Source: Eledone cirrhosa (taxonomy: Eukaryota). Taken from it: a DNA stretch of 64,000 nucleotides. Of this stretch, positions 9,576 through 50,595 are shown in pieces. Position 1 is the first letter of the stretch. The number at the start of each line of letters is the position of its first letter. The notes beneath the pieces are model-generated. The model was not told where the DNA came from. It saw nothing but the letters and a program-made list of their open reading frames with translations, and made no database searches. Position numbers and translations under genes: made by a program. Where the stretch lies: NCBI GenBank assembly GCA_964016885.1, contig OZ024741.1:94798001-94862000 (forward strand), written 5' to 3'.

Positions 9576-11310
9576 ATCATCATCATCATCATCATCATCA
9601 TCGTTTAATGTCCATATTCCACGCTTGCATGGGTTTGGACGGGAGTTTTCCTACTTGAGGCAAGAGTGGTTGTCTTGCTCGCATAGGACTGTCTGGCTGG
9701 TTTTCTACGGCTGGATGCCTTTCCTAACACCAACCACATTTACAGTATGGAACTGGGAGGTTTTTACTGTGTTACCTGCATGGCCACATTACAGCGTGGA
9801 CTGTGTGTTTTTTTGTCGTGACACCTACACGACCTCATTTGTTTCGGGCTGGATGTTGTGACACCAACATAACTTTACATTGAAAGGGGTGGTGTGGATG
9901 GGGTGGGGGTAGTGGGACGGGGGTGTATTTTGTTAGAGGTGCCTACTGACTGTAGTAGGTTTCACTTTGTACTTAGGTAAGGCGGGTCTTCTCTATTACT
10001 GTGTAGCGCCAAAGCTCTCGGTCCAGTGACATTGTCTTGGAGAGGTGTAAGTGTGTGAGGTCGGAATTTGTCAAGGTTTTTCTGGGTCTGCCTACTCCGT
10101 GGCTACCGTCTATTTTTATTGCCCTGCACTTTTTTATACAGCTGCCGTCTTTCATGCGCATCACGTGACCATACCAACGTAGTCTTCTCTCGAGTAAACA
10201 TCTGATCCCTCTTATTTCTAATTTCTCCCTTAGTTCGTTTATGCTTTGCCGTTCACGTATATTGCTATTACACATCCAGCGGAGCATGCAAGCTTTGTTT
10301 CTCTCCAGTCTGCGTATATCCTCTGCACACAATGCCCAGGTCTCACTGCCATGTAACATTGCTGTTCGTATGCAGGCATCATACAGCCTGCCTTTCATTT
10401 TTAGAGAGAACCCTTTAGCGGCCAATAGTGGTATAAGCTCTCTGAACTTTTTCCATCCCGTTCTGACTCTAGCTACTGTACTTTCAGAGCACCCTCCCCC
10501 ACTGCTGATTTTATCACCCAGGTAACGGAAGCTGTCCACTATTTCTATAGCACCATCTGTGCAATGGAATGAGTTAGTATTCTGTGGGCACTTGCTGCTA
10601 CTTATTGCACCAGAGCACCGGCCACATATAAAATCTATATTCTTAGTTAGCTTACCTGTGATCCCACATCTTTTATGTACCCATACTTTGCATTTGGGAC
10701 ATAAAATAGAGTTTCTACCTACTCCTTTCCTACACACTGAGCATGGCCATTTCCCAGATGGGACCGGTGCCCTATTTTCCTTCCTACAAACTAGAACTTT
10801 AGTCTAGTTTGCCTTTTGATTCTAGGCCTTGCTTCCATGTTTGGAATTTCTTCTCTAGTTTAGCCATTGATTCAGCTATGAGCGTTAGATCATCTGCATA
10901 TAGGAGTTCCCATGGGCAGCTGGTCTTGAACTCCTCTGTTATAGCCTGAAGGGCAATAATAAATAGTAGGGGGCTAAGGACGGAGCCCTGATGAACACCA
11001 ACTTTTACGCTAAACTCTTCACTATATTCGTTGTTAATTCTAACCTTGCTGACTGTTTCTTTATACATGGCTTGTATAGCTCTCACAAGCCATTCATCAA
11101 CAACTAGTTTTCTAAGGGCCCACCAGATAATCGAGCGGGGTACTCTGTCAAAGGCTTTCTCCAAGTCAACAAAAGCTAAGTATAGGGGTTTACTTTTAGC
11201 TAGGTACTTCTCCTGTAGTTGTCGTACAATGAAAAGAGCGTCTGTTGTACTTTTTCCTGACACAAACCCGAACTGCATTTCGTCTAGATCAATTCGCTCT
11301 CTGATTAGTT
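9576..11310 (-). mobile_element. RTE LINE, 5'-truncated, frameshifted
   Basis: ORFs 10799-11278 and 9973-10737 (QFGF, DLEKAFDRVP, GVHQGSVLSP, YADD, RLRWYGH); (ATG)n tail at 9576-9602; TA tracts on both sides. Confidence 0.93.
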
Positions 11311-12013: not shown

Positions 12014-14380
12014 ATCATCATCATCATCATCACCGTTTTACGTCCATTCTTCCACGCTAGCATGGGTTAGACGGGTTGTCCTGTTGTGGGCAGTGTCTGG
12101 TCAGCTGACCATGCCTTGCTCATACAGGAACTGATTTGGCTTGATTTCTACAGCTGGATGCCCTTCATAACACCAACCTCATTTACAGTGAGTGCTGGGT
12201 GCTTTTTCGTGGCGCCTACACGTCTACTTTACAGTGTGGGCTGGGTGCTATTTTGCCGTGGCACCTCCACGACCACCTTGCAGTGGGGGGTGTGGGGGCA
12301 TATTGTCTATATGCTTCAGCTTGCATCCATGGGAGGTCGGGTACTCTGTATTACTGCGTGACGCCAGAGGTCACGGTCGTGTGTCATCGCCTTTGAGAGG
12401 TGTAATTGGGTAAGGTCGGCTTTTATCACCTCATCCCAGGTCATTTTGGGTCTCCCCACTCCACGGTTTCCATCGACTTCTAGTGCTCTGCACCTTTTTA
12501 TGTCATCCTTCATACGCATTACATGTCCATACCAACCCAACCACCTCTCCTGCACACAGCATTTGATTCCTCTTATGCTCAGTCTCTCTCTCAATTCATT
12601 TATGCTTTGTCGTTCGCGTATATTACTATTACACATCCATCGGAGCATGCAGGCTTCGTTTCTCTCTAATCTACGTAAGTCTTCAACCTTCAGCGCCCAG
12701 GTCTCACTACCATGCAACATCGCTGTTCGGATACACGCATCATACAGTCTGCCTTTCATTTTGAGGGAGAAGCCTTTTGCAGCTAGCAGTGGTAGTAGTT
12801 CCCTAAACTTCTTCCATCCCGTTCTTACCCTAGTTATTGTACTTTCTGAACACCCACCTCCGCTGCTAATTCGGTCACCTAGGTAGCAGAAGCTGTCTAC
12901 TGTTTCTACAGAGCCCTCCCAGAGATTGGTGGTACTTGTTTCCTGTGGCTGTTTGCTGCTTGCTGTCCCAACACAGCTGCTGCATGTGAAGCCTACATTC
13001 TTAATTAAGCTTCCTGAGATCCCGTTACATCTCTTGTGTACCCATTGTTTGCATTTGGGGCAGAGAATGGAGTTCCTACCTACACCTTTCCTACATACTG
13101 AGCAAGGCCATTTCCCTGAGGGGATCTGGGTTCTGTCTTCTCGTCTACTTACAAGGACCTTAGTCTTTGTCATGTTGACTTTGAGACCCTTTCTTTCTAG
13201 TCCCTGCTTCCAAGTTTGGAATTTCTTCTCTAGTTCTACCATAGATTCAGCTATAAGTGCGAGGTCATCAACATACAGGAGTTCCCATGGGCATCCGGTC
13301 TTAAACTCCTCCGTTATTGCCTGCAGGACTATGATGAACAGGTGGGGGCTAAGAACAGAGCCCTGGTGGACCCCAACCTGTACGCTAAATTCCTCGCTAT
13401 ACTCATTGCTAATCCTAACTTTGCTGACTGCTCCCCTATACATGGCTTGTACCGCTTTCACAAGCCATTCATCTACTCCTAGTTTTCTAAGAGCCCACCA
13501 GATTACAGCACGTGGAACTCTGTCAAAGGCTTTCTCGAGATCGATGAATGCCAGGTAGAGTGGCTTACTTTTAGCTAGGTACTTTTCCTGTAACTGCCTC
13601 ACAAGGAAGAGGGCATCAGTGGTGCCTCTTCCTGGTACAAACCCAAATTGCATCTCATCTAGTTTCACCCGGTCCCTAATCAACTGTGCTATAACTCTTT
13701 CTGTTACTTTCATGACCTGGTCCATCAGCTTTATACCTCTATAGTTTCCTCTATCTAGTGCATCACCTTTACCTTTGTAGCAGTTGACAATGATGCTACT
13801 GCACCAATCTTTTGGTATGACACCTAGTATTACCTGGTTAACAATACGTGTGGTTATAGTGTGACCTACAGACCCAGATGCCTTCAGCATCTCGGCAGCT
13901 ATACCCGATGGACCGGTTGCCTTCCCCATCTTCATATCTTTGATTGCCTTACTTACTACGCTGCTGCTGGCTTGTACTGCTGGCCCCTCTATAGGGTCTA
14001 CTTGGGGTAGGGTCTCTTCTTCCCATGCATTCTCCTCATTTAGTAATCTATCATAATGACTCTTCCATGCATCTTTCTTCTCAGCACTTATGAGAGCAAG
14101 CTCACCTTTATCATTCCGGATACACTTCTCTCCAATGACATCACAATTCTCTATGACACACTGCCTCACAATCTTGAACACCTCCTGTTTCTGGTCCTCA
14201 CGTTGCAAAACATGCTTGAATTTTCTATCCTCTGCTTCCCTCCTAGCTAAGTATACTTGTCGCCTAGCTCCCCTCTTGGTCTCTATGTAATGTACCCTGC
14301 TCCCCCAGTTCTTCCATTCTTTCCATGCCTGTCTCTTGGCCTTAACTGACTCATCTACCTTAACTGCCTCATCTACCACC
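12014..14380 (-). mobile_element. RTE LINE, 5'-truncated, open 688-aa RT-containing frame
   Basis: ORF 12316-14382 with full RT motifs (YVDD at the catalytic site) and C4HC3 finger; (ATG)n tail at about 12014-12032. Confidence 0.95.
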
Positions 14381-14597
14381 AAGTCACTCTCCTCCTGCTT
14401 GTGGTCTTACTCCATCCACAGACCTCATCCGTCGCCTCTAGTAAGTTATTTTTTATATATATATATATATATACCTATATATATATATATATTATTTATA
14501 TTTATTTATATTATTTATATATATATATATATATATACCTATATATATATATATATATACCTATATATATACATGTATATATGTATATATATAGGTA

Positions 14598-34231: not shown

Positions 34232-34274
34232 GTCAAAGTTCTTTCGTCTCACATTCTGTGACCTCTTCAGTGAC
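34232..34274 (-). ncRNA. Minimal type I hammerhead ribozyme in a PLE pLTR-like island (starting 34081)
   Basis: GTCA-CTGAAGA-GGTCACA GAA TGTGAGAC-GAAA-G AA C-TT-TGAC; island terminus TTGGGAAGGTCATGTTGCCAATAAGAAACACAC recurs inverted at 42390-42452 and resembles the PLE end at 36890. Confidence 0.65.
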
Positions 34275-36887: not shown

Positions 36888-36893
<6 letters not shown>

Positions 36894-38385
36894 CTTGGGG
36901 AGGGTCATATTTGTGTAATATTGCCAGAATTAATAACAGAACACACTCACTGTTTGGTTGGTTTTCGCTTCTCGCTGTCTTTTATATCTGTAATCTAGCT
37001 TACTCGGTCCTCAATGTTGCCATTGACTGACCGACGGTAAAAAATAATACAGATACAATATAGACACAAACACATATATATAGTTTACATAATTTACATA
37101 AATCTTTCGTTGCACATCTGCAACATCGTCAGTGGTGTTATATTTTCCTCCTGTTGTGTTGTATGTCTACGCCATTTTTTATTCAGTCTGTCTGTATATT
37201 TATTTATTTATTTATTTGCATGTTTGTTTATTTTGTTTTGTCTTCTTTGCGCATGCGTTTGCGTGTGTGTATAGTGTTATGTTTGCTGTGTGACTAGTGT
37301 GTATAGTGTGATGTTTGCTGGGTGACTAGTGTGTATTTATGTGCTTGTTGTTATTGTGCTTGTGTATGTATTTATTTATCTTATTTTATTTACTTATTTA
37401 TACTTCTCTTAGGTCAGTGTTGTTTGTTTGGGTGTTGTTGTTATTCCACTCATTCTTTCTGTTTAGCTTTGGTCTTCTAATTTCTATTTCACTGGCCTCT
37501 CTGATTTGCCTATCTGCTGGGTCATTTCTATGTTTAGATATTATTCTAATTTCTATGTTGTCTATGTTACCGTCATGTTGTTGTCTAGCATGTTCGTATA
37601 GTACTGACCCGTTTTTTCGTCCTTTTAGTTCCCCCCAGTGTTGGTCTATCCTTTCACCTATGCTACGAGCTGTCTCACCTATGTATGTTGTTGTCATGTT
37701 TCTGCAAGTACCCTCTGTACATCTTATGCTATAGACTACGTTTCTAGTTTTACAGTTTATCCGGGGGTTCACCTTACATATGATACATTTCCTATTGGTA
37801 CAGTGGGTTTTCTTAAAAGGGTAGGTTTTGCTGATCAGGGATTTTATGGTGGTTCCTGGCTTTTCTACCACCTTTATTTTTAAGTGGGTCTTTCTCAGGG
37901 CCTTTCTACACTGGTTAACTAATTTCCCTCCAGGGGTGGCGTCCACAAACATGACACTCTGGTATCTCTGGTTGTCGTACCATGATGTGGCTTTCCCTAT
38001 CTTATGTCTAGCCCTATCTAAGCTATTCCATGATTTGCTCCTGTATAATGGGCAAATTCCTTTCATGTCCAGTTCTATGAGGGTCTTATACTTTTCCATG
38101 GCTCCTTCGTATACTCTGACTCTGTCTCTTTGGTTGTAGCCAGAGAACTGCATGCGGTTGATGAAGTGTTGGATGTGTCTTTCCATTTCTGTTGGGTCGC
38201 ACATGCTGGACACATTCTTCATCACTCGTACCAAATCTGCGATCATAATATTAAACTTAGCACTACTGGACATTGCTGAGTTTTTGAGTATCAGGTATTT
38301 GGAGGCAAAATGGTAGTCCTGGTCAGCATAAGCTGGGTGAATTTCATGAGCGAAAGGTACAGACACGTCCAGTGTGAGTGGGATG
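36888..38385 (-). mobile_element. Penelope-like element, 5'-truncated (RT C-terminus, GIY-YIG endonuclease, pLTR)
   Basis: Open frame 37398-about 38310: SGY, Cys-rich linker, NVVYSIRC...[20 protein letters not shown]...LNRKNEW; TA-flanked. Confidence 0.9.
37097..37134 (-). ncRNA. Minimal hammerhead in the PLE 3' pLTR (short stem I)
   Basis: CA-CTGACGA-T-GTTGCA GATG TGCAAC-GAAA-G AT T-TA-TG. Confidence 0.6.
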
Positions 38386-38457
<72 letters not shown>

Positions 38458-38468
38458 CATACATATAC

Positions 38469-38499
<31 letters not shown>

Positions 38500-38536
38500 C
38501 ATATATATATACACATATATATATACATATATATAC

Positions 38537-38603
<67 letters not shown>

Positions 38604-38646
38604 CATATATACATATATATATACATATATATATATACATATATAT

Positions 38647-39376
38647 ATAAAAACAAATAACGAAACGAAATTAAATTTCGTTTCGTTTGTAACTCACTTT
38701 TGTATGACTGACGCTTAAACAATTAAGTTAAAAATGTACATCCGCATATGTATACTGAAATACTAGTATGCATATGAATACACACACGTATACATATGCA
38801 GATGTACCAAGTCTTTCACTGGTTACTTTACTGTGAGTATCCAGCTATTCTGTATGTAAACACACAGACAAACCGGTTTTTAGAGTCATACTGGTCTTTG
38901 AGGAAACACCTTTCCTCTATTCTCCAGAAAGCCAGACAAGGAATATTGAACTAGTTTCGTTGTTGTTACAACTCATCAGCAATATTTACCTATCTACCGG
39001 CCTTTCTGGAGAATCGTAAAAGCACATATCGTTATATGCTTTTTCTATGAAAATTAGTAGTGGGCAGACTAATTTGCATAGAGTGTGAGTACGTACCGGT
39101 TCAACGGAGACGATAAAAACAAATAACGAAACGAAATTAAATTTCGTTTCGTTTGTAACTCACTTTTGTATGACTGACGCTTAAACAATTAAGTTAAAAA
39201 TGTACATCCGCATATGTATACTGAAATACTAGTATGCATATGAATACACACACGTATACATATGCAGATGTACCAAGTCTTTCACTGGTTACTTTACTGT
39301 GAGTATCCAGCTATTCTGTATGTAAACACACAGACAAACCGGTTTTTAGAGTCATACTGGTCTTTGAGGAAACAGA

Positions 39377-39378
<2 letters not shown>
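38647..39378 (-). mobile_element. Retrozyme-like ORF-less partial tandem (466-bp period, 262-bp direct repeats)
   Basis: 38647-38908 repeated at 39113-39374, apparently identical; hammerhead in the unique part; TA tracts on both sides. Confidence 0.7.
38942..38986 (-). ncRNA. Type I hammerhead ribozyme with extended stem I
   Basis: AATATTG-CTGATGA-GTTGT AACA ACAAC-GAAA-C TA G-TT-CAATATT; stem I continues to TCTCCAGAAAG / CTTTCTGGAGA (38921-39011). Confidence 0.85.
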
Positions 39379-39435
<57 letters not shown>

Positions 39436-39621
39436 GATAAATCTACCAAAAGTTTACGGTAGTGTCCAATCCGTATGAAGAACTCAATGTAATCCGGATA
39501 TCATGAAAAGAGAAGATGCATTCAAAAACTACTTTCGGTGAAAAATAAACGGAAAACAGAGTCAAGATAAATTAATAAAATAATGAATAAACAAAGAAAC
39601 AGTTCCTTATATTAAAAAAAT

Positions 39622-39763
39622 TCATCATTTTACGATCGTTTCTAGGATATATATGTGTTAGAGTTGGTATGCATATTCTATAGATCTATGTACAATATTT
39701 ATACAAACTATCAGAGGGAATATACATACCTACACATATATATGCTGTCTTCAGAAATAATGA
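39622..39763 (-). ncRNA. Type I hammerhead with about 105-nt stem II (3' pLTR copy)
   Basis: Reverse complement of 41891-42032. Confidence 0.75.
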
Positions 39764-41020
39764 TATTTGTTTATTGAAAAAAGCAAAGATTCAATACAAT
39801 AGGTCTGTTTGGGAACAGGTTTTGAATTGACCAATCAGGAGATAGTGAGGGTCAAGATAGTAATATAGTAGTAGAAGAACCTTAAATTATGGGTAGAGGA
39901 AGGTAGATTTCAGTTTTGGATGAAGGAATATTTTAGGCAAGAAATAGGTCTTATGCTGACCTCAGAAATAATTTTATTTGTTCATTGAATAAAACCAATA
40001 AAGATCTAATATATTCTGTCTGTATGGTAAGAGGTTTAGAATTAACCAATAGAAAGTTAATAATTGGCCAAATGGTAAAATAGTAGTAATTGAAGCTTAT
40101 TTTAGGGGTGAAAATAGGTCAGGTGGTCAGTCAAAGGTATACAAGCAGTTGCTGTTATAAAATAATAATGCCAATACAAATATCTAAGGTGACCAAAGTT
40201 TTAAGATAAGAATGTTAGTGAAAAAAATACATCTATGAAAAGAATATAAAATTAATTTAATTGATGGGTATATTTATATTGATAAAATTATACTAATACA
40301 TATAGATATGATAAATAAGAGTTAGATGCAGTTCAAAAGTGCTGTTAAAGATGAGGGGAAATTAAAAGAATATAAAAATAATATATATATATATATATAC
40401 CTATATATACATATACATATACATATACATATATATACACATACACACACATATATATATATATATATACACTTATATATATATATATGTGTGTATATAT
40501 ATATACACACATACACACACACACATACACACATATATATATATATATATATATACATATATATATACACATATATATATATATACATATATATATACAC
40601 ACATACATGCACATATACATATATACACATACATATACACACACATACACACTTATACATACATATAATTATTGGGGGGGGGGGGGTTAAATTTATTAGT
40701 GAGAAATAGTAAATATATATAGTTTTCAAGGAACATAGAGTCATAACCTGAAGTTAAAGCATTATATATGTTTACTTAATGGTATCAGTTTTAGGAAATG
40801 ATATTTGTAAGAAGGAAAGCAAAATTATGTAGTTCATCAGTAGTAGAATATTAATTATAGGTTAACTAAATTAAAAATAGTTTATATATTAATTTCTAAA
40901 GTGTATATTAATTAGGTTTATAATATTTAAAGCAGAATTATGTAGTTCATCAGTAGTAGAATATTTATTATAGGTTAACTAAATTAAAAATAATTTATAT
41001 ATTAATTTCTAAAGTGTATA

Positions 41021-41670
41021 TTAATTAGGTTTACAATATTTAAAGGTTTTTCTCAGTTTATGATTACACGATATTATTAATTCCTGTCGCTTATTTAATA
41101 GGGTATCCTTAGATTTCATTATTTCGAAAAGTTCTTGGGAACATAATCTACATTCATTTCTACTATTTTGATAAGGGGTGGCCCTTTTGAGCACACTCCA
41201 GGTCAGGTCATATTCTATATTCCTCTTTCTATAACTATTAATTATTTCAGCTAGAGATGTATTAGCTAGTGCGGCATTTTTAAAACTATGTTTGTGGGTA
41301 TTAAATCTTACCTTAAAATTGTTAGAGGTAGCTCCTATATATGAATAAATTGAGTCCTTAGTGTTAACTTTACATTTATAGGCAATTTCCTTTTAATGGA
41401 CAGTTTGCCTTGTTTCTACAGTTACAACTTTTCGTGAATCCTGTATCTGAGGAGATATTATGGTTAGTTTGATGTACTGGTGGTATACTCATGGTTTTTT
41501 TACACTTATATGCATTATAGGCACTTATATTTTGTTTTATGTTTTTGGTTGTTGAGTAGGAGAATTTAACCGTTGATCTATTTAAGATTTGATGGTATTT
41601 GTGGTTTGGCGGGAAGTTTTTCTCTAGGATATTAAAGAATTTTTTAGGTATATTATCCTTAATTTGTAAA
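41021..41670 (-). pseudogene. Frameshifted PLE RT C-terminus plus GIY-YIG endonuclease (not in the ORF track)
   Basis: Manual translation: NFPPNHKYHQILNRSTVKFSYS...CNCRNKANCPLKGN / AYKCKV..YSYIGATSNNFKVRFNTHKHSF...W...CRLC...LLNKRQELIISCNH. Confidence 0.8.
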
Positions 41671-41890
41671 TTAAATCAGCATAAGACCTATTTCTTCCCT
41701 AAAATATTCCTTCATTCATAATACTCTTTTCCATCCAAAACTGAAATCTACCTTCCTCTACCCATAATTTATGGTTCTTCTACTACTATATTACTATCTT
41801 GACCCTCACTATCTCCTGATTGGTCAATTCAAAACCTGTTCCCAAACAGACCTATTGTATTGAATCTTTGCTTTTTTCAATAAACAAATA

Positions 41891-42032
41891 TCATTATTTC
41901 TGAAGACAGCATATATATGTGTAGGTATGTATATTCTCTCTGATAGTTTGTATAAATATTGTACATAGATCTATAGAATATGCATACCAACTCTAACACA
42001 TATATATCCTAGAAACGATCGTAAAATGATGA
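41891..42032 (+). ncRNA. Type I hammerhead with about 105-nt stem II (inverted pLTR copy)
   Basis: TCATTATTT-CTGAAGA-CAGC ATATATATGTG..GGTATGTATATTC...GAATATGCATACC..CACATATATAT CCTA-GAAA-C GATC G-TA-AAATGATGA. Confidence 0.75.
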
Positions 42033-42110
42033 ATTTTTTTTAATATAAGGAACTGTTTCTTTGTTTATTCATTATTTTATTAATTTATATATATATATAT
42101 ATATACACAC

Positions 42111-44189: not shown

Positions 44190-45927
44190 TATCAGTGCCA
44201 CGGAACACCCGCCCATCGCCTTACGGTCGAACAACGAACTATCTTCATCTTACAGACCCACACTCCCCCCGGCCTGAACTCCCCACCCTTATTCCTTTAG
44301 CGTTCGACCGCGCCCCTCCCCCCACACTTATCCCCCACTAACACGAAATAACACACCCCTCCTTTTCACCGCCCACCCCACACTAACAATACTAACACCT
44401 CCACTCCACCCCTCATCTGACCACCCTTCCCCAACTAACATACTAACATCCCTTCCCTCCCCTCTTCTCCTCCTCCCCCCTCCTTATCACACGCACACAC
44501 CCACCGGCACATATATACACGCGCTCACACTAAACACACACCCTACTACCACCACTAACCCTCACCCCCACACCTCTCACCCCCACACCTTCATCCCACC
44601 ACCCCGCAACTAATCTCACTAACACCCCCTAACCCCAAGCACACGAACACACGCACCCACTTACACCACCCACCCCACACGCAACTAACATCACTAACAC
44701 CCCCAACCCCACGCACACGTACCCACACACCCTCGTACACCACCAACTCTACACACCCTACCACCACTAACCCCCACTCACACCTGCATTCAACCCCTCC
44801 CCACCTCCCGTATACTAACACCCACTAACACCTCTTCATCAAACTACACACGCACCAGTACACCACACTCCCTCCATAGAACCACACACACCCTTCTCTC
44901 CCCACTCCACCCACACCCTCACTCCACACTCACTCATCCCACTAACACCCCTACTAATACACACACACACCCTCCTCACTCCAACTTTCACACCTACCCA
45001 TCCTCGCCCCCTACCATTCCACTGACTGCTGCTGTGCCCTCTGGCCACCTCCCAGCACCAACAGACCACAGCACTCCCACTGCTGACCACTTCCTGTTGC
45101 GCGCGTACCCCACATCTCTCCTCTTCCGACCACCACTTCATGGATTACCCACACGCAGAATTTGACTTACAAACAATCTACTGAACATCCTTGGAACTTA
45201 CCAACTTTTCAACCATCCTCTTGCGTAATCACCTATATAACTCACCCGCACACACACCCCAAAAAATGTTTTTCTCCACACGCCACGCACACCCACAACA
45301 CGCTTAAACCCCACACACACGTGCTTCCCACCACATATTTACACCCTCAGCCTCCTGATTCCTCTCCCCCACCCCCCTATCCACACACGCACAGACACTC
45401 CGACCCACAAAAACACCCCCCACACACACCCCTTCCTGAACATGCAACCCCGTTTTTCCCCCAACCCTTACTTTCACATACACACACACACTCACGCACA
45501 CCTACACACACACACACCACCTTCAGCCCTCCCCGCTCGGACACCCCGTCTCCCTCTCCCCACTCCACCCGCCACCACCCCTACTCACCTCACACCCTTC
45601 CACCACCTGTTTACCCCCCTTTTAATTTCAGTTTATTTTGATCATGCCTTTATTTTTAAATTTTCTCATTCCTTGTATTTTGATCATGCTTTATTTTTAT
45701 TTTTTATCTTTATTTGTTTTTTCTCATTCGCACCGTTTCCTTTCGCTATATGTCTCTCCACCACTCCCCTACACACCTTTTGAACTCTGTTCCCACACAC
45801 TTCTCACCTGAGGAAGGGCTTATGCCCGAAACGTCGTCCCCCACCTACCCCCCACTCTCCTGAGCGTGAAATTAATAAACATTTATTGTACTGCCTCTCT
45901 GTTTTGTCCCTGTTCAAATTTTTCCAT
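44190..45927 (+). mobile_element. C/A-rich low-complexity retroposed island ending in a degenerate hammerhead core and AATAAA
   Basis: About 1.4 kb strongly G-poor strand; CTGAGGA-A-GGGC TTAT GCCC-GAAAC-GTCGTC at 45808-45838; AATAAA at about 45874. Confidence 0.4.
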
Positions 45928-46595
<668 letters not shown>

Positions 46596-47485
46596 AGAAG
46601 CTAGATTTACCATCTTTCTAGCGGGTCCGGGTATGCTTTTTACATTCATTTGATTTATTGATTTATTGATATTTTATCTGAGTGTCCCGAATCTTCCAGA
46701 TCGCAATTTTTCGGTCGTATGATTGATTTTAGACATGTTCTATATGTAACGGTATTTTAACGATAGTTATAGCTCTGATTTATCTGAATTATTGAGCCCT
46801 CTGCCGCTCATTTCGAATTTTGTTTATCGTGAACTCGTGCGCCGATTTTTCGATACTCGATTATTCTACTATATTTAGCTCTAGACCTAGCTATTGGCCA
46901 GTTAATTTTATTGTTCATTTTTTGTCGATTCTATTAAATGATGAATAGCTCCTGTTTATTTTAACATGTCTATTGAGCACTCTTATTCGATATGTGTATT
47001 TCCACATTTTCCCGAATATTTTTTGCGGATATAGAGGTTATCTCCCTTGCTGAATTCCATGTGCGTTTTTTCAACCTGGGTTATGCCTTATCATTCGTTC
47101 GGACAAAAGCTCGTTGAGGAAGTAAATTCCCGTCCGCTGGCTTCTAGAAGTCTTATATTTTTTATGTGAGCTGATAGAGGGCAGTTTAAGGATTTACAGA
47201 AACCCAAGAAGCTAGATTTACCATCTTTCTAGCGGGTCCGGGTATGCTTTTTACATTCATTTGATTTATTGATTTATTGATATTTTATCTGAGTGTCCCG
47301 AATCTTCCAGATCGCAATTTTTCGGTCGTATGGTTGATTTTAGCCATGTTCTATATGTGACGGTATTTTAACGATAGTTATAGCTCTGATTTATCTGAAT
47401 TATTGAGCCCTCTGCCGCTCATTTCGAATTTTGTTTATCGTGAACTCGTGCGCCGATTTTTCGATACTCGATTATTCTACTATAT
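46596..47485. mobile_element. ORF-less partial tandem element (611-bp period, about 280-bp direct repeats)
   Basis: 46596-46874 repeated at 47207-47485 with a few differences; TA on both sides. Confidence 0.65.
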
Positions 47486-47493
47486 ATATATAT

Positions 47494-50400
47494 ATGAAGA
47501 CGTCGCATCTCAGAGTTGCAACACTTAATGTTGGCACTCTCAGAGGTAGATCTGCTGAAATAGCGGAGATGCTGGAGAGAAGGCAGGTGGATGTGTGCTG
47601 CGTGCAAGAGGTGAGATGGAGAGTTGCCTCTGCGAGACTAGTCGTAGGCAAGCGTCTTAGCTATAAGCTATTCTGGGTAGGTAAGGATGATGGGTTAGGG
47701 GGAGTAGGCATTTTCCTGGCTGAGAAATGGATCAATAAGACAATAGAGGTAGTTCGAGTTAGTAATCGAATAATTAAGCTTAGATTAGTTGTAGGTAGGA
47801 GACTACTGACAATCATCTCGGTCTATGCTCCCCAAGCAGGCCTAGGCAAAGATGAGAAAGACTGCTTTTATGAGCAACTTTTGCAAACAACCACAATGAC
47901 AGAGGACGGAGACATCGTTATACTAGCAGGAGACTTCAATGGTCATGTTGGACAGCTCCAGGATGGTTACACTGGGGTACATGGTGGGCACGGTTACGGT
48001 TCAAGAAATGAAGAAGGAGTGAGACTTCTTGAATTTTGTGATGCGAGTACATTGACTATTTTCAACACAAACTTCCAGAAACCTGCCAATCACCTAATAA
48101 CCTACAAATCTGGTGAGCACATAAGCCAGATTGACTTCCTGCTAGTTAGGCAGCGGGACAGGCAGATAGTGTTTAATACCAAGGCATACCCTGGGGAAGA
48201 ATGTACCCCACAGCATAGGTTAGTTGTTAGTGATATCTCAGTAAGCAAGAGATGGAATGAGACATATAGGAAGGTGTGGAGAAGAAAGGTCTGGAAGCTA
48301 AAAGACCTTTCACTAAAATACAAATTTAGGAAAGCCCTTCAAGATGTATATGACGAAAAAGAAGACGATTTAGAGACGTATGACATAGATAATAACTGGA
48401 AGTTCTTACGTGACAACTTGCTGCAGGCTACTGATGAAACCTGTGGCTGGAGCAGAGCTCCAACCAGACAGAGAGTGACCTGGTGGTGGAACAGCACAGT
48501 AGATAAGGCTATTAGAGACAAAAGACTAGCATGGAAGGCTTGGAAAAAGGGTGGGAGTAGGGAAGAATATACAGCCACTAAGAGAGAAGCTAGACGTCAG
48601 GTGTACTTAGCGCGCAGGGAGGCAGAGAGTAGAAGGTTTGCCAATGTTCTGCGACGGGAAGATCAGAGGCGTGCGGTGTTCCACATTGCAAGGCAGTGTG
48701 TCAATGCAAATCAGGATGTTGTTGGAGATAAATGTGTCCGGGATGATGCCGGTGTACTTAGTGTCACGAATGATCAGAAAAAGGAGGCCTGGAAATGTCA
48801 TTATGAGAGACTGATGAATGTGGAGAACGAATGGGAGAGAGAGAAATTACCCTTGGTAGATCCGACAGAGGGACCAGCTATTGAGATTGACGAATATAGG
48901 GTCCAAGAGGCGATTAGGGAAATGAAAAATGGTAAGGCGGCCGGACCATCGGGAATAGTTGCTGAGATGCTGAAGGCATCAGGGGACGTAGGCACTAAAC
49001 TGGTTGCACGCATCATCAATCAGGCTATATATGGTGGTGTCATACCCAAAGACTGGTGCAGCAGTATTCTCATAAATTGCTACAAAGATAAAGGGGATGC
49101 TTTGGAGAGGAGCAATTATAGGGGTTTAAAACTGATAGATCAGGTTATGAAAGTGGCAGAAAGGATATTAGCACAACTAATTAGAGAAAGGGTCAAACTA
49201 GATGAGATGCAGTTTGGTTTTGTGCCTGGGAAGAGTACAACAGATGCCCTCTTCTTGGTGAGACAAATGCAAGAGAGGTTCTTAGAGAAGAATAAGCCAC
49301 TATACTTAGCCTTTGTTGACCTAGAGAAGGCCTTTGATAGGGTACCCCGATCTGTCATCTGGTGGTCCCTAAGGAAGCTAGGTGTTGAGGAATGGCTTGT
49401 GAGGACAGTGCAAACTTTGTACAGAGGTACTCTCAGTAAAGTCAGGGTAGGAATGGAGTTTAGTGAGGAATTCCAGATAAAAGTAGGAGTACATCAGGGT
49501 TCGGTCCTCAGCCCGCTCTTGTTCATTATAGTCCTCCAAGCCATAACAGAGGAGTTTAAGACTGGCTGTCCATGGGAACTTCTCTATGCTGACGATCTGG
49601 TTCTTATAGCAGAATCAGTAGAGGAGCTAGAGAATAAATTCTGGCTATGGAAACAGCAGTTGGAAGCAAGAGGACTGAGGGTGAATCTAGCTAAGACAAA
49701 AGTGTTGATGAGTAGAAAAGAGGACAAAAGCCTGATTCCGTCAGGGAAATGGCCATGTTCGATATGCAGAAAAGGAACTGGCATAAATTCTATAAAATGC
49801 ACACAATGCAGATCTTGGGTACACAAGAGATGTAGCGGGATAGCAGGCAAACTAACAGGTAGGGAGAAATATGTATGCAGTAGATGTACAGGGAAATTAG
49901 ACAGTAGAAGTCGCACTGATAGACACATTTTTCAAATGCAAGAGGGCGCTATAGAAGTGGTGGATAGCTTCCGGTACCTAGGAGATCAGATTAGCATGGG
50001 AGGTGGGGGGTGGGGTGTTCCGAGGCCATAGTATCTAGAATAAGGACGGGTTGGAAGAAGTTTAGGGAGCTGCTTCCTCTGTTGACGAAGAAGGGTTTCT
50101 CCCTGCGTACGAAAGGCCGGTTGTATGATGCCTGTGTGAGGAGCGCGATGCTGCATGGTAGCGAGACATGGGCAGCAACTGCAGAGGATATGCGACGGCT
50201 GGAGAGAAATGAGGCAAGCATGCTCCGTTGGATGTGCAGTGTAAATGTGCGTGAACGACCCAGCATAAATGTGTTGAGAGAGAAACTGTGTCTGAGAGGG
50301 ATAGAATGTAGTGTACGGGAGAGGAGACTGAGGTGGTATGGACATGTGATGCGCATGGAGGATGACCGATGGGTGAAGAAGTGCCAGGAAATGCCAGTCG

Positions 50401-50595
50401 AAGGAAGACGTGGTAGAGGTAGACCACGAAAAACACGGGCGGAGGTGGTGAGAACAGACCTCAGATCATTGAAGCTCACGGTGGAGATGACGAGGGACCG
50501 TGACGAGTGGAGAGATGCTGTGCTGAATAAGACCCGTCCCACCCTTGCAAGCAGGCAAAAGCGGACGTAAAATGATGATGATGATGATGATGATG

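Follow-up and report, generated by a model that had tools for sequence, protein, structure and literature searches.

Non-autonomous PLE derivatives are known in general. For the non-LTR retrozymes of animals, PLEs or LINEs have been proposed as the mobiliser (Cervera and de la Pena 2020, PMC7229834), and vertebrate retrozymes are concluded to be non-autonomous PLE derivatives (Li, Clavereau and Pollet 2026, 10.64898/2026.07.22.740005). PLE insertions are described as 5'-truncated, tandem or joined to an inverted truncated copy, and often located in (TA)n; their tail of 30-40 bp, often present at one end only, is stated to be absent from non-LTR elements (Craig et al., PMC8557442). In vitro, a purified PLE protein cleaves AT-rich DNA on both strands and extends both of them; its reverse transcription starts at two internal RNA sites, the interval between them constituting the tail (Frangieh et al., PMC11167929).

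The family described here, to which a copy in the analysed window (the whole stretch of 64,000 nucleotides) belongs, resembles the retrozymes of coral, mussel and axolotl (PMC7229834), which likewise consist of short non-coding tandem repeats with a type I hammerhead, are low in GC and self-paired, and occur in thousands of copies. Its unit of 466 nt compares to approximately 170-400 nt in those animals (PMC7229834) and falls inside the 51-972 bp of vertebrate retrozymes, for which local array amplification is described (10.64898/2026.07.22.740005). Circles have been shown for the coral, mussel and axolotl elements (PMC7229834); in the window family, a circle is putative. Two fixed ends, a TA target and inverted arms are not described in the main text of PMC7229834, which contains neither 'inverted' nor 'microsatellite', and the main text of 10.64898/2026.07.22.740005 contains neither 'tail' nor 'target site'. 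In the latter, the Xenopus evidence consists of co-occurrence and pLTR homology; in the window family, we found no pLTR homology, but a PLE-like insertion footprint.

Compared to PLEs with a C-terminal GIY-YIG (PMC8557442, PMC11167929), the family is alike in its 5' truncation, tandem or inverted arms, tail at one end, (TA)n or AT-rich target and two start sites. It differs in having no ORF, a tail of 69-74 rather than 30-40 nt, a canonical instead of a minimal hammerhead, and repeats of the whole unit. By description, it can be likened to the newt and axolotl satellite 2 hammerheads, with their short palindromic stem III and dimer for efficient cleavage (PMC7229834, PMC4209133); unlike satellite 2, the family resides in what appears to be an invertebrate-type genome. 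The plant LTR retrozyme has a type III hammerhead in its LTRs, whereas the window family has a type I hammerhead in tandem units, so it is not of the plant kind.

Our literature search, which covered largely open-access papers and their main texts, yielded no two-end tail footprint for retrozymes and no cephalopod retrozyme. The kind of element is already known, and we found no earlier description of such an insertion architecture for retrozymes. Published support for the mobiliser of animal retrozymes consists of co-occurrence and sequence similarity. Thousands of young insertions in this family carry the tail footprint specific to PLEs, which links the insertion of retrozymes to PLE chemistry. 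The family also provides precise predictions of the start sites, a target, and enzyme candidates whose ORFs are intact. Together with the published in vitro PLE assay, this makes the mobilising enzyme and the copying of circles directly testable. Furthermore, the family displays a route from ribozyme RNA to palindromic and satellite-like arrays.

Composition of the window copy and its hammerhead

The features of the locus are collected in Table 1; unit positions are numbered from 38647, with position 1 being the RNA 3' end. The repeats at 38647-38908 and 39113-39374 are 262 nt each, 100% identical, offset by 466 nt and flanked by TA runs, in agreement with the identical 262-bp direct repeats, 466-nt monomer and approximately 1.6 copies (here 1.56 units) proposed in an earlier sequence-only reading of this DNA. 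The perfect hairpin, the lack of an ORF and the single minus-strand hammerhead of that reading, with its stem I prolonged by a long interrupted helix, its 5-bp stem II and its palindromic stem III, were all recovered. The longest ATG ORF around the unit comprises 19 aa in sense and 52 aa in antisense orientation, and the folding z-score of the unit is -11.4. Two variants, at 38799 and 38896, are present in both repeats and absent from the other sampled loci; no donor for them was found among the 40 scored of 906 candidates. The window copy corresponds to the arm carrying the tail, cut at position 262; at its 5' junction, 5 additional bases can be read as an inverted copy including one private variant, possibly by chance. 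Two consecutive hammerheads are the criterion for an active copy; as the window copy contains only one, it is unable to release a monomer alone, and it is a dead-end fragment.

Table 1 Features of the retrozyme locus and its direct neighbours, in window coordinates
Feature	Position	Strand	Description
Left neighbour, separate 5'-truncated PLE	36892..38383	-	RT end, Cys linker, GIY-YIG-like EN, 3' repeat
(TA)n-type target run, RNA 3' side	38384..38646	.	
Retrozyme insertion	38647..39379	-	1.56 units, 5'-truncated at unit position 262; 5 extra bases, then TA run
Full 466-nt unit	38647..39112	-	GC 35.8%, without ORF, highly self-paired
PLE-type 'tail'	38647..38715	-	Between fixed 3' ends: outer 38647, inner 38716-38721
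Perfect 13-bp hairpin in tail	38659..38687	.	Second copy at 39125-39153
Canonical type I hammerhead	38942..38986	-	Predicted cleavage between 38949 and 38948
Hammerhead stem I	38980-38986 with 38942-38948	-	7 bp, continues into long interrupted helix
Hammerhead core CUGAUGA	38973-38979	-	
Hammerhead stem II	38959-38972	-	5 bp
Hammerhead core GAAA	38955-38958	-	
Hammerhead stem III		-	2 bp in palindrome AACUAGUU; U17 = 38949
Partial second unit	39113..39374	-	Identical to 38647-38908
(TA)n target run, RNA 5' side	39380..39432	.	
Right neighbour, separate truncated PLE	39434..42080	-	GIY-YIG fragment 41021-41392, inverted arms, in TA runs

The Rfam model Hammerhead_HH9 matches 38926-38997 (-) with 38.6 bits, which is under its gathering score of 52, at an E-value of 3.5e-8 in a 729-nt search and 3.1e-6 for the whole window. 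Other Rfam matches in the window, to microRNAs and sraA, represent low-complexity or hairpin noise. Folding prediction assigns pair probabilities of 0.66-0.96 to stem I and 0.89-0.99 to stem II. Across 18 aligned copies, 97.6% of the cells pair, and two-sided changes occur in 6 of the 14 hammerhead pairs, exceeding all 500 shuffles and all slid controls, in a set of related sequences with few events, mostly from two sister-family rows and one subfamily change. One stem II pair has changed in step from U-A to A-U in 30 of 92 loci, and hammerhead pairing is retained across families that are approximately 70% alike. The cleavage site of the window copy is GUU, combined with the 2-bp stem III; at H17, 64 loci carry U, 29 carry C, and the sister family carries A. 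For hammerheads with a short stem III, a double-hammerhead-like dimer has been described (PMC4209133), and the palindrome is predicted to favour such a dimer here (-21.4 kcal/mol, vs 2 x -9.0 for the monomers). Two same-strand hammerheads are present in 30 of 60 position-ordered loci. New within-locus mutations are equally frequent in the core (14/3,776) and in the rest of the unit (446/125,883), as expected after insertion, and the lack of subfamily-level changes in the core is not significant (p 0.23).

The element combines the features of retrozymes, namely a type I hammerhead in each unit, short head-to-tail repeats at dispersed loci, and a non-coding, low-GC, self-paired sequence; it is an animal non-LTR retrozyme and belongs to a young, abundant family. 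In the 3.0-Gb genome, exact-pattern searches set lower bounds of 1,978 sites where (AT)3 meets the 3' end, 6,218 hammerhead cores, and 7,279 unit ends directly preceding a C, with which the next unit begins; each reversed-pattern control returned 0. The retrozyme candidate of the sequence-only reading is supported by approximately 2,000 exact junction sites, the cores, tandem arrays and compensatory stem changes.

Insertion ends, inverted arms and arrays

Three samples of loci were read: the 38 top-scoring loci, including the window, 60 position-ordered loci, and 14 loci picked by hammerhead. The position-ordered loci were taken along contig C1 from the junction list, skipping those already sampled, and are hence anchored at position 1; two of the listed junctions fell in one locus. 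The 14 remaining loci were chosen by their hammerhead among those without a listed exact junction.

In the 38-locus sample, 65 outer RNA-3' ends were read, with 37 at position 1-3, 24 at 70-80 and 4 elsewhere; 57 of the 61 ends at the two sites adjoin TA. Inverted loci account for 28 of the 38 and for 39 of the 60 position-ordered loci. In the latter sample, 34 second arms end at 70-75 in TA and 3 end elsewhere, and a very short second arm is seen in eight more loci. All 14 hammerhead-picked loci possess one or both of the same ends, one of these loci lying inside a CAT repeat. The usual layout runs from TA through position 1, units, an inversion, and further units to position 70-75 and TA. 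Arms ending at the inner site have no tail, and the fixed 3' sites are approximately 70 nt apart (tail 69-74 nt). The inversion point is freely variable, and single-arm copies with variable 5' ends are common. Truncations at the inversion junctions show no pile-up near the cleavage site, with 5 of 136 located within 297-308 compared to 3.5 expected.

The sequence-only reading regarded the unit as head-to-tail permuted, and this has to be revised: as the 3' ends are fixed at unit positions 1-3 or 70-80 and the truncation points are spread over the unit, variation concerns the 5' ends only, which rules out a random permutation in the sampled loci. The same reading looked to multi-unit arrays with varying start points; such arrays are common, and their 5' ends do vary, but their 3' ends are fixed. 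Between subfamilies, the tail is polymorphic at 2 of 66 sites and the remaining unit at 65 of 394 (p 0.002), a difference inflated by the selection of the position-ordered loci on 23 tail bases; higher conservation is as expected of a recognition element. Autonomous PLE families of the same genome have two ends in TA as well, with tails of approximately 39 nt and 60 nt. Two fixed ends in (TA)n are a mark of PLE insertion, and PLEs therefore likely move the retrozyme.

Identity to the window unit is 85-99% among the sampled copies, which fall into subfamilies. Their arrays range from a fraction of a unit to approximately 50 units, and several show periods of 2, 3, 4 or 6 units. At L176-L178 (G000:C1:95942344-95966309), a single insertion contains a 49-unit arm with nested block duplications at periods of 8, 7 and 5-6; here, a retrozyme is becoming a satellite organised in higher-order repeats. 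Array length was discarded as proof of rolling-circle copying, since block duplications such as those of the 49-unit arm are typical of DNA-level growth. None of the listed sequencing runs is recorded as RNA; among four examined out of six runs of unrecorded type, one contains a 496-nt contig (466+30), which fits a tandem array or a circle equally.

Enzyme, template and rival explanations

Two separate PLE copies, lying in the same TA nests, adjoin the insertion (Table 1). The 3' repeat of the left neighbour contains a hammerhead core of the PLE type, in which A9 is followed by an extra U. Its family is young and abundant, with at least 122 matches, nearly all of them 96-99% identical, and a tail of approximately 60 nt (window, L192-L195); elsewhere, it retains intact 1,217-aa ORFs with an Asn-rich insert and RT-like and GIY-YIG-like motifs. 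Pfam and PDB gave no useful match for the RT of this family, and the PLE identity of the RTs is based on motifs and architecture. Among named relatives, a neighbouring RT matches one from Octopus vulgaris best (68%), which suggests a cephalopod host. Clade labels for the PLEs here, such as Neptune or Hydra, are presumptive and derive from motifs.

The sequence-only reading suggested that two adjoining PLEs could supply the RT. Two PLE fragments do flank the insertion, but their repeats have no significant homology to the unit, and because both copies are 5'-truncated, they cannot themselves supply the RT. Alignment of the unit to four PLE repeats gave scores no better than those of shuffled sequences (18-138 of 200 shuffles scored as high), and an nhmmer search of 743 kb of flanks for PLE repeats like the unit returned retrozyme-like repeats only. 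Homology therefore did not reveal the driver, and tail length did not single one out either, with 39, approximately 60 and approximately 135 nt (the last by eye) in PLEs against 69-74 nt in the retrozyme.

Regarding the template, all 25 young two-armed loci (25/25) have one haplotype at positions 97-99 in both arms, where 7.1 would be expected from four haplotypes, and their median cross-arm divergence is 0.55-0.69%, compared to 1.2-6.2% between loci. Both arms appear to derive from one template; conversion between the palindromic arms could contribute, as L037 hints. Truncations do not accumulate at the cleavage site, which makes a circle or an uncut multimer the likely template; a cut linear monomer is ruled out as the usual one by the lack of 5' ends there. 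L096 has 0 substitutions across 20 segments of both arms, its nearest sampled locus differing by 0.43%; L097 and L040 come close to this uniformity. In L115, one variant unit is the starting point of both arms, and the units that follow lack its variants, which points to a multimeric template. Private variants are fixed in all covering segments of 12 of the 87 multi-segment loci, with 169 singletons. Divergence within a locus is lower than that to the nearest other locus in 38 of 71 tests within the same arm and in 32 of 57 across arms, which is near even and not discriminating as a test for circles; the comparison left out L109, a duplicate of L108, and segments below 80 nt or 84% identity. 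On balance, we lean slightly towards a circle as a common template.

We postulate, with a probability of approximately 80%, that the window copy is a 5'-truncated copy of a hammerhead-bearing non-coding tandem repeat whose copies end at two fixed sites in (TA)n runs, and that it was likely inserted in trans by a PLE RT and GIY-YIG nuclease. The tandem arrays would be transcribed, and paired hammerheads would cut after NUH17. A PLE protein would nick both strands of a TA run, and RT would start at two internal sites, approximately 300 and 230 nt downstream of the cut site, and copy across the ribozyme junction for one or more units; the cDNA ends would then join. Some insertions would likely have been copied from a ligated circle and others from uncut or oligomeric RNA, and some long arrays may afterwards enlarge by DNA-level duplication. 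At odds a little short of even, we tentatively extend this to a dimeric PLE protein that would prime both strands of a broken TA run on a single circular retrozyme RNA, using two fixed sites separated by 70 nt, and roll round it both ways, serving at least three hammerhead RNA families without detectable homology to the tested PLE repeats. If true, these insertions would record rolling-circle target-primed reverse transcription in the genome.

The main rival to this mechanism keeps the same element and PLE enzyme and has an uncut linear multimer as the template in every case, which would make the circle unnecessary and leave the ribozyme little part in insertion. The arms of L115, passing from one variant unit into variant-free units, fit this account, as do the periodic arrays, the GUU cleavage site with its 2-bp stem III, and the in vitro work on an anole PLE, in which uncut RNA is the main substrate (PMC11167929). 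The uniformity of the young arrays L096, L097 and L040 over both arms argues against it, together with the two private window variants, found in both repeats and in no other match (40 scored of 906), the hammerhead pairing kept across families approximately 70% alike, and the circles documented for coral, mussel and axolotl retrozymes (PMC7229834). We regard an exclusively linear template as a realistic possibility, although one held with clear reservation.

It is very unlikely, in our estimation, that the unit represents no more than a pseudo-LTR belonging to an autonomous PLE, with copies arising as ORF-less truncation products, or, as the sequence-only reading phrased its alternative, that this is a pLTR-only PLE insertion. 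The tail, inverted arms and TA target are common to PLEs and the unit, and some second arms continue into PLE sequence (L062, L098, L121, L048, L110). These chimeric arms, however, involve four different PLE families, and in the sampled loci the 3' end of the unit never ran into an ORF. Among 419 exact unit ends from these loci, some counted twice, 314 lead to the next unit, 100 to A and 5 to other letters (4 mutated unit starts and 1 TA-like), with no ORF following any of them (0/419), nor any of the 30 ends read out of 120 followed by T or G (0/30). Moreover, the hammerhead is canonical and does not have the extra base after A9 seen in the minimal hammerheads of PLEs (PMC4209133) and in the left neighbour. 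Propagation at the DNA level, as a satellite or MITE-like repeat in which the hammerhead is a passenger, is extremely improbable: it would account for the block duplications of long arrays, and the inverted ends superficially resemble terminal inverted repeats, but it is contradicted by the polarity of truncation, and the inversion point is free, the outer ends are different unit positions, single-arm copies are common and the 3' ends are fixed.

Chimeric arms and related repeats

At L062:4359-6202, L098:305-4041, L121, L048 and L110, an inverted arm passes from the retrozyme into sense-strand, outward-pointing PLE sequence. In L062, L098, L121 and L110, the chimeric arm ends at the PLE 3' end in TA, and the joint in L048 shows approximately 11 nt of microhomology. 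These loci are possible mixed-template insertions; deletions between neighbours in TA nests could produce chimeric arms as well. Because the arms come from four PLE families, and other LINE-like sequence is also involved, the chimeric arms were set aside as a non-specific guide to the driver.

A sister retrozyme family, approximately 70% alike and with units of approximately 420-480 nt, is present at L046:2565-3755, L055:2900-3630, L063:2300-4400 and L044:6210-6684. Its cleavage site is GUA; it shares with the window family the stem III palindrome and an architecture of two ends, head-to-head arms and a TA target, and some of its units contain an internal TA run. A third hammerhead tandem family consists of near-identical 310-nt units (L055:8015-10000, L049:9441-10000 and L057:1-382), with head-to-head arms and two 3' ends approximately 26 nt apart in TA runs; more distant relatives of this family occur in L084, L135 and L169.

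Within the window, 44193-45931 corresponds to the 3' part of a C-rich PLE family, also present in L062 and L071, which we take to be Neptune-type from its motifs. Two more hammerhead-like cores, at 34270 (-) and 51364 (-), are of types recurrent in many flanking loci and are probably repeats of other PLE families. LINE ORFs occupy 47407-50570 (+), 12316-14406 (-) and 9973-11308 (-), with near-full copies of approximately 1,000 aa in other loci; their motifs lead us to assume that they are RTE-type. Another small element, at L130:716-760 and L046:3830-3960, ends in TA runs and carries short perfect inverted repeats at its 5' junction.
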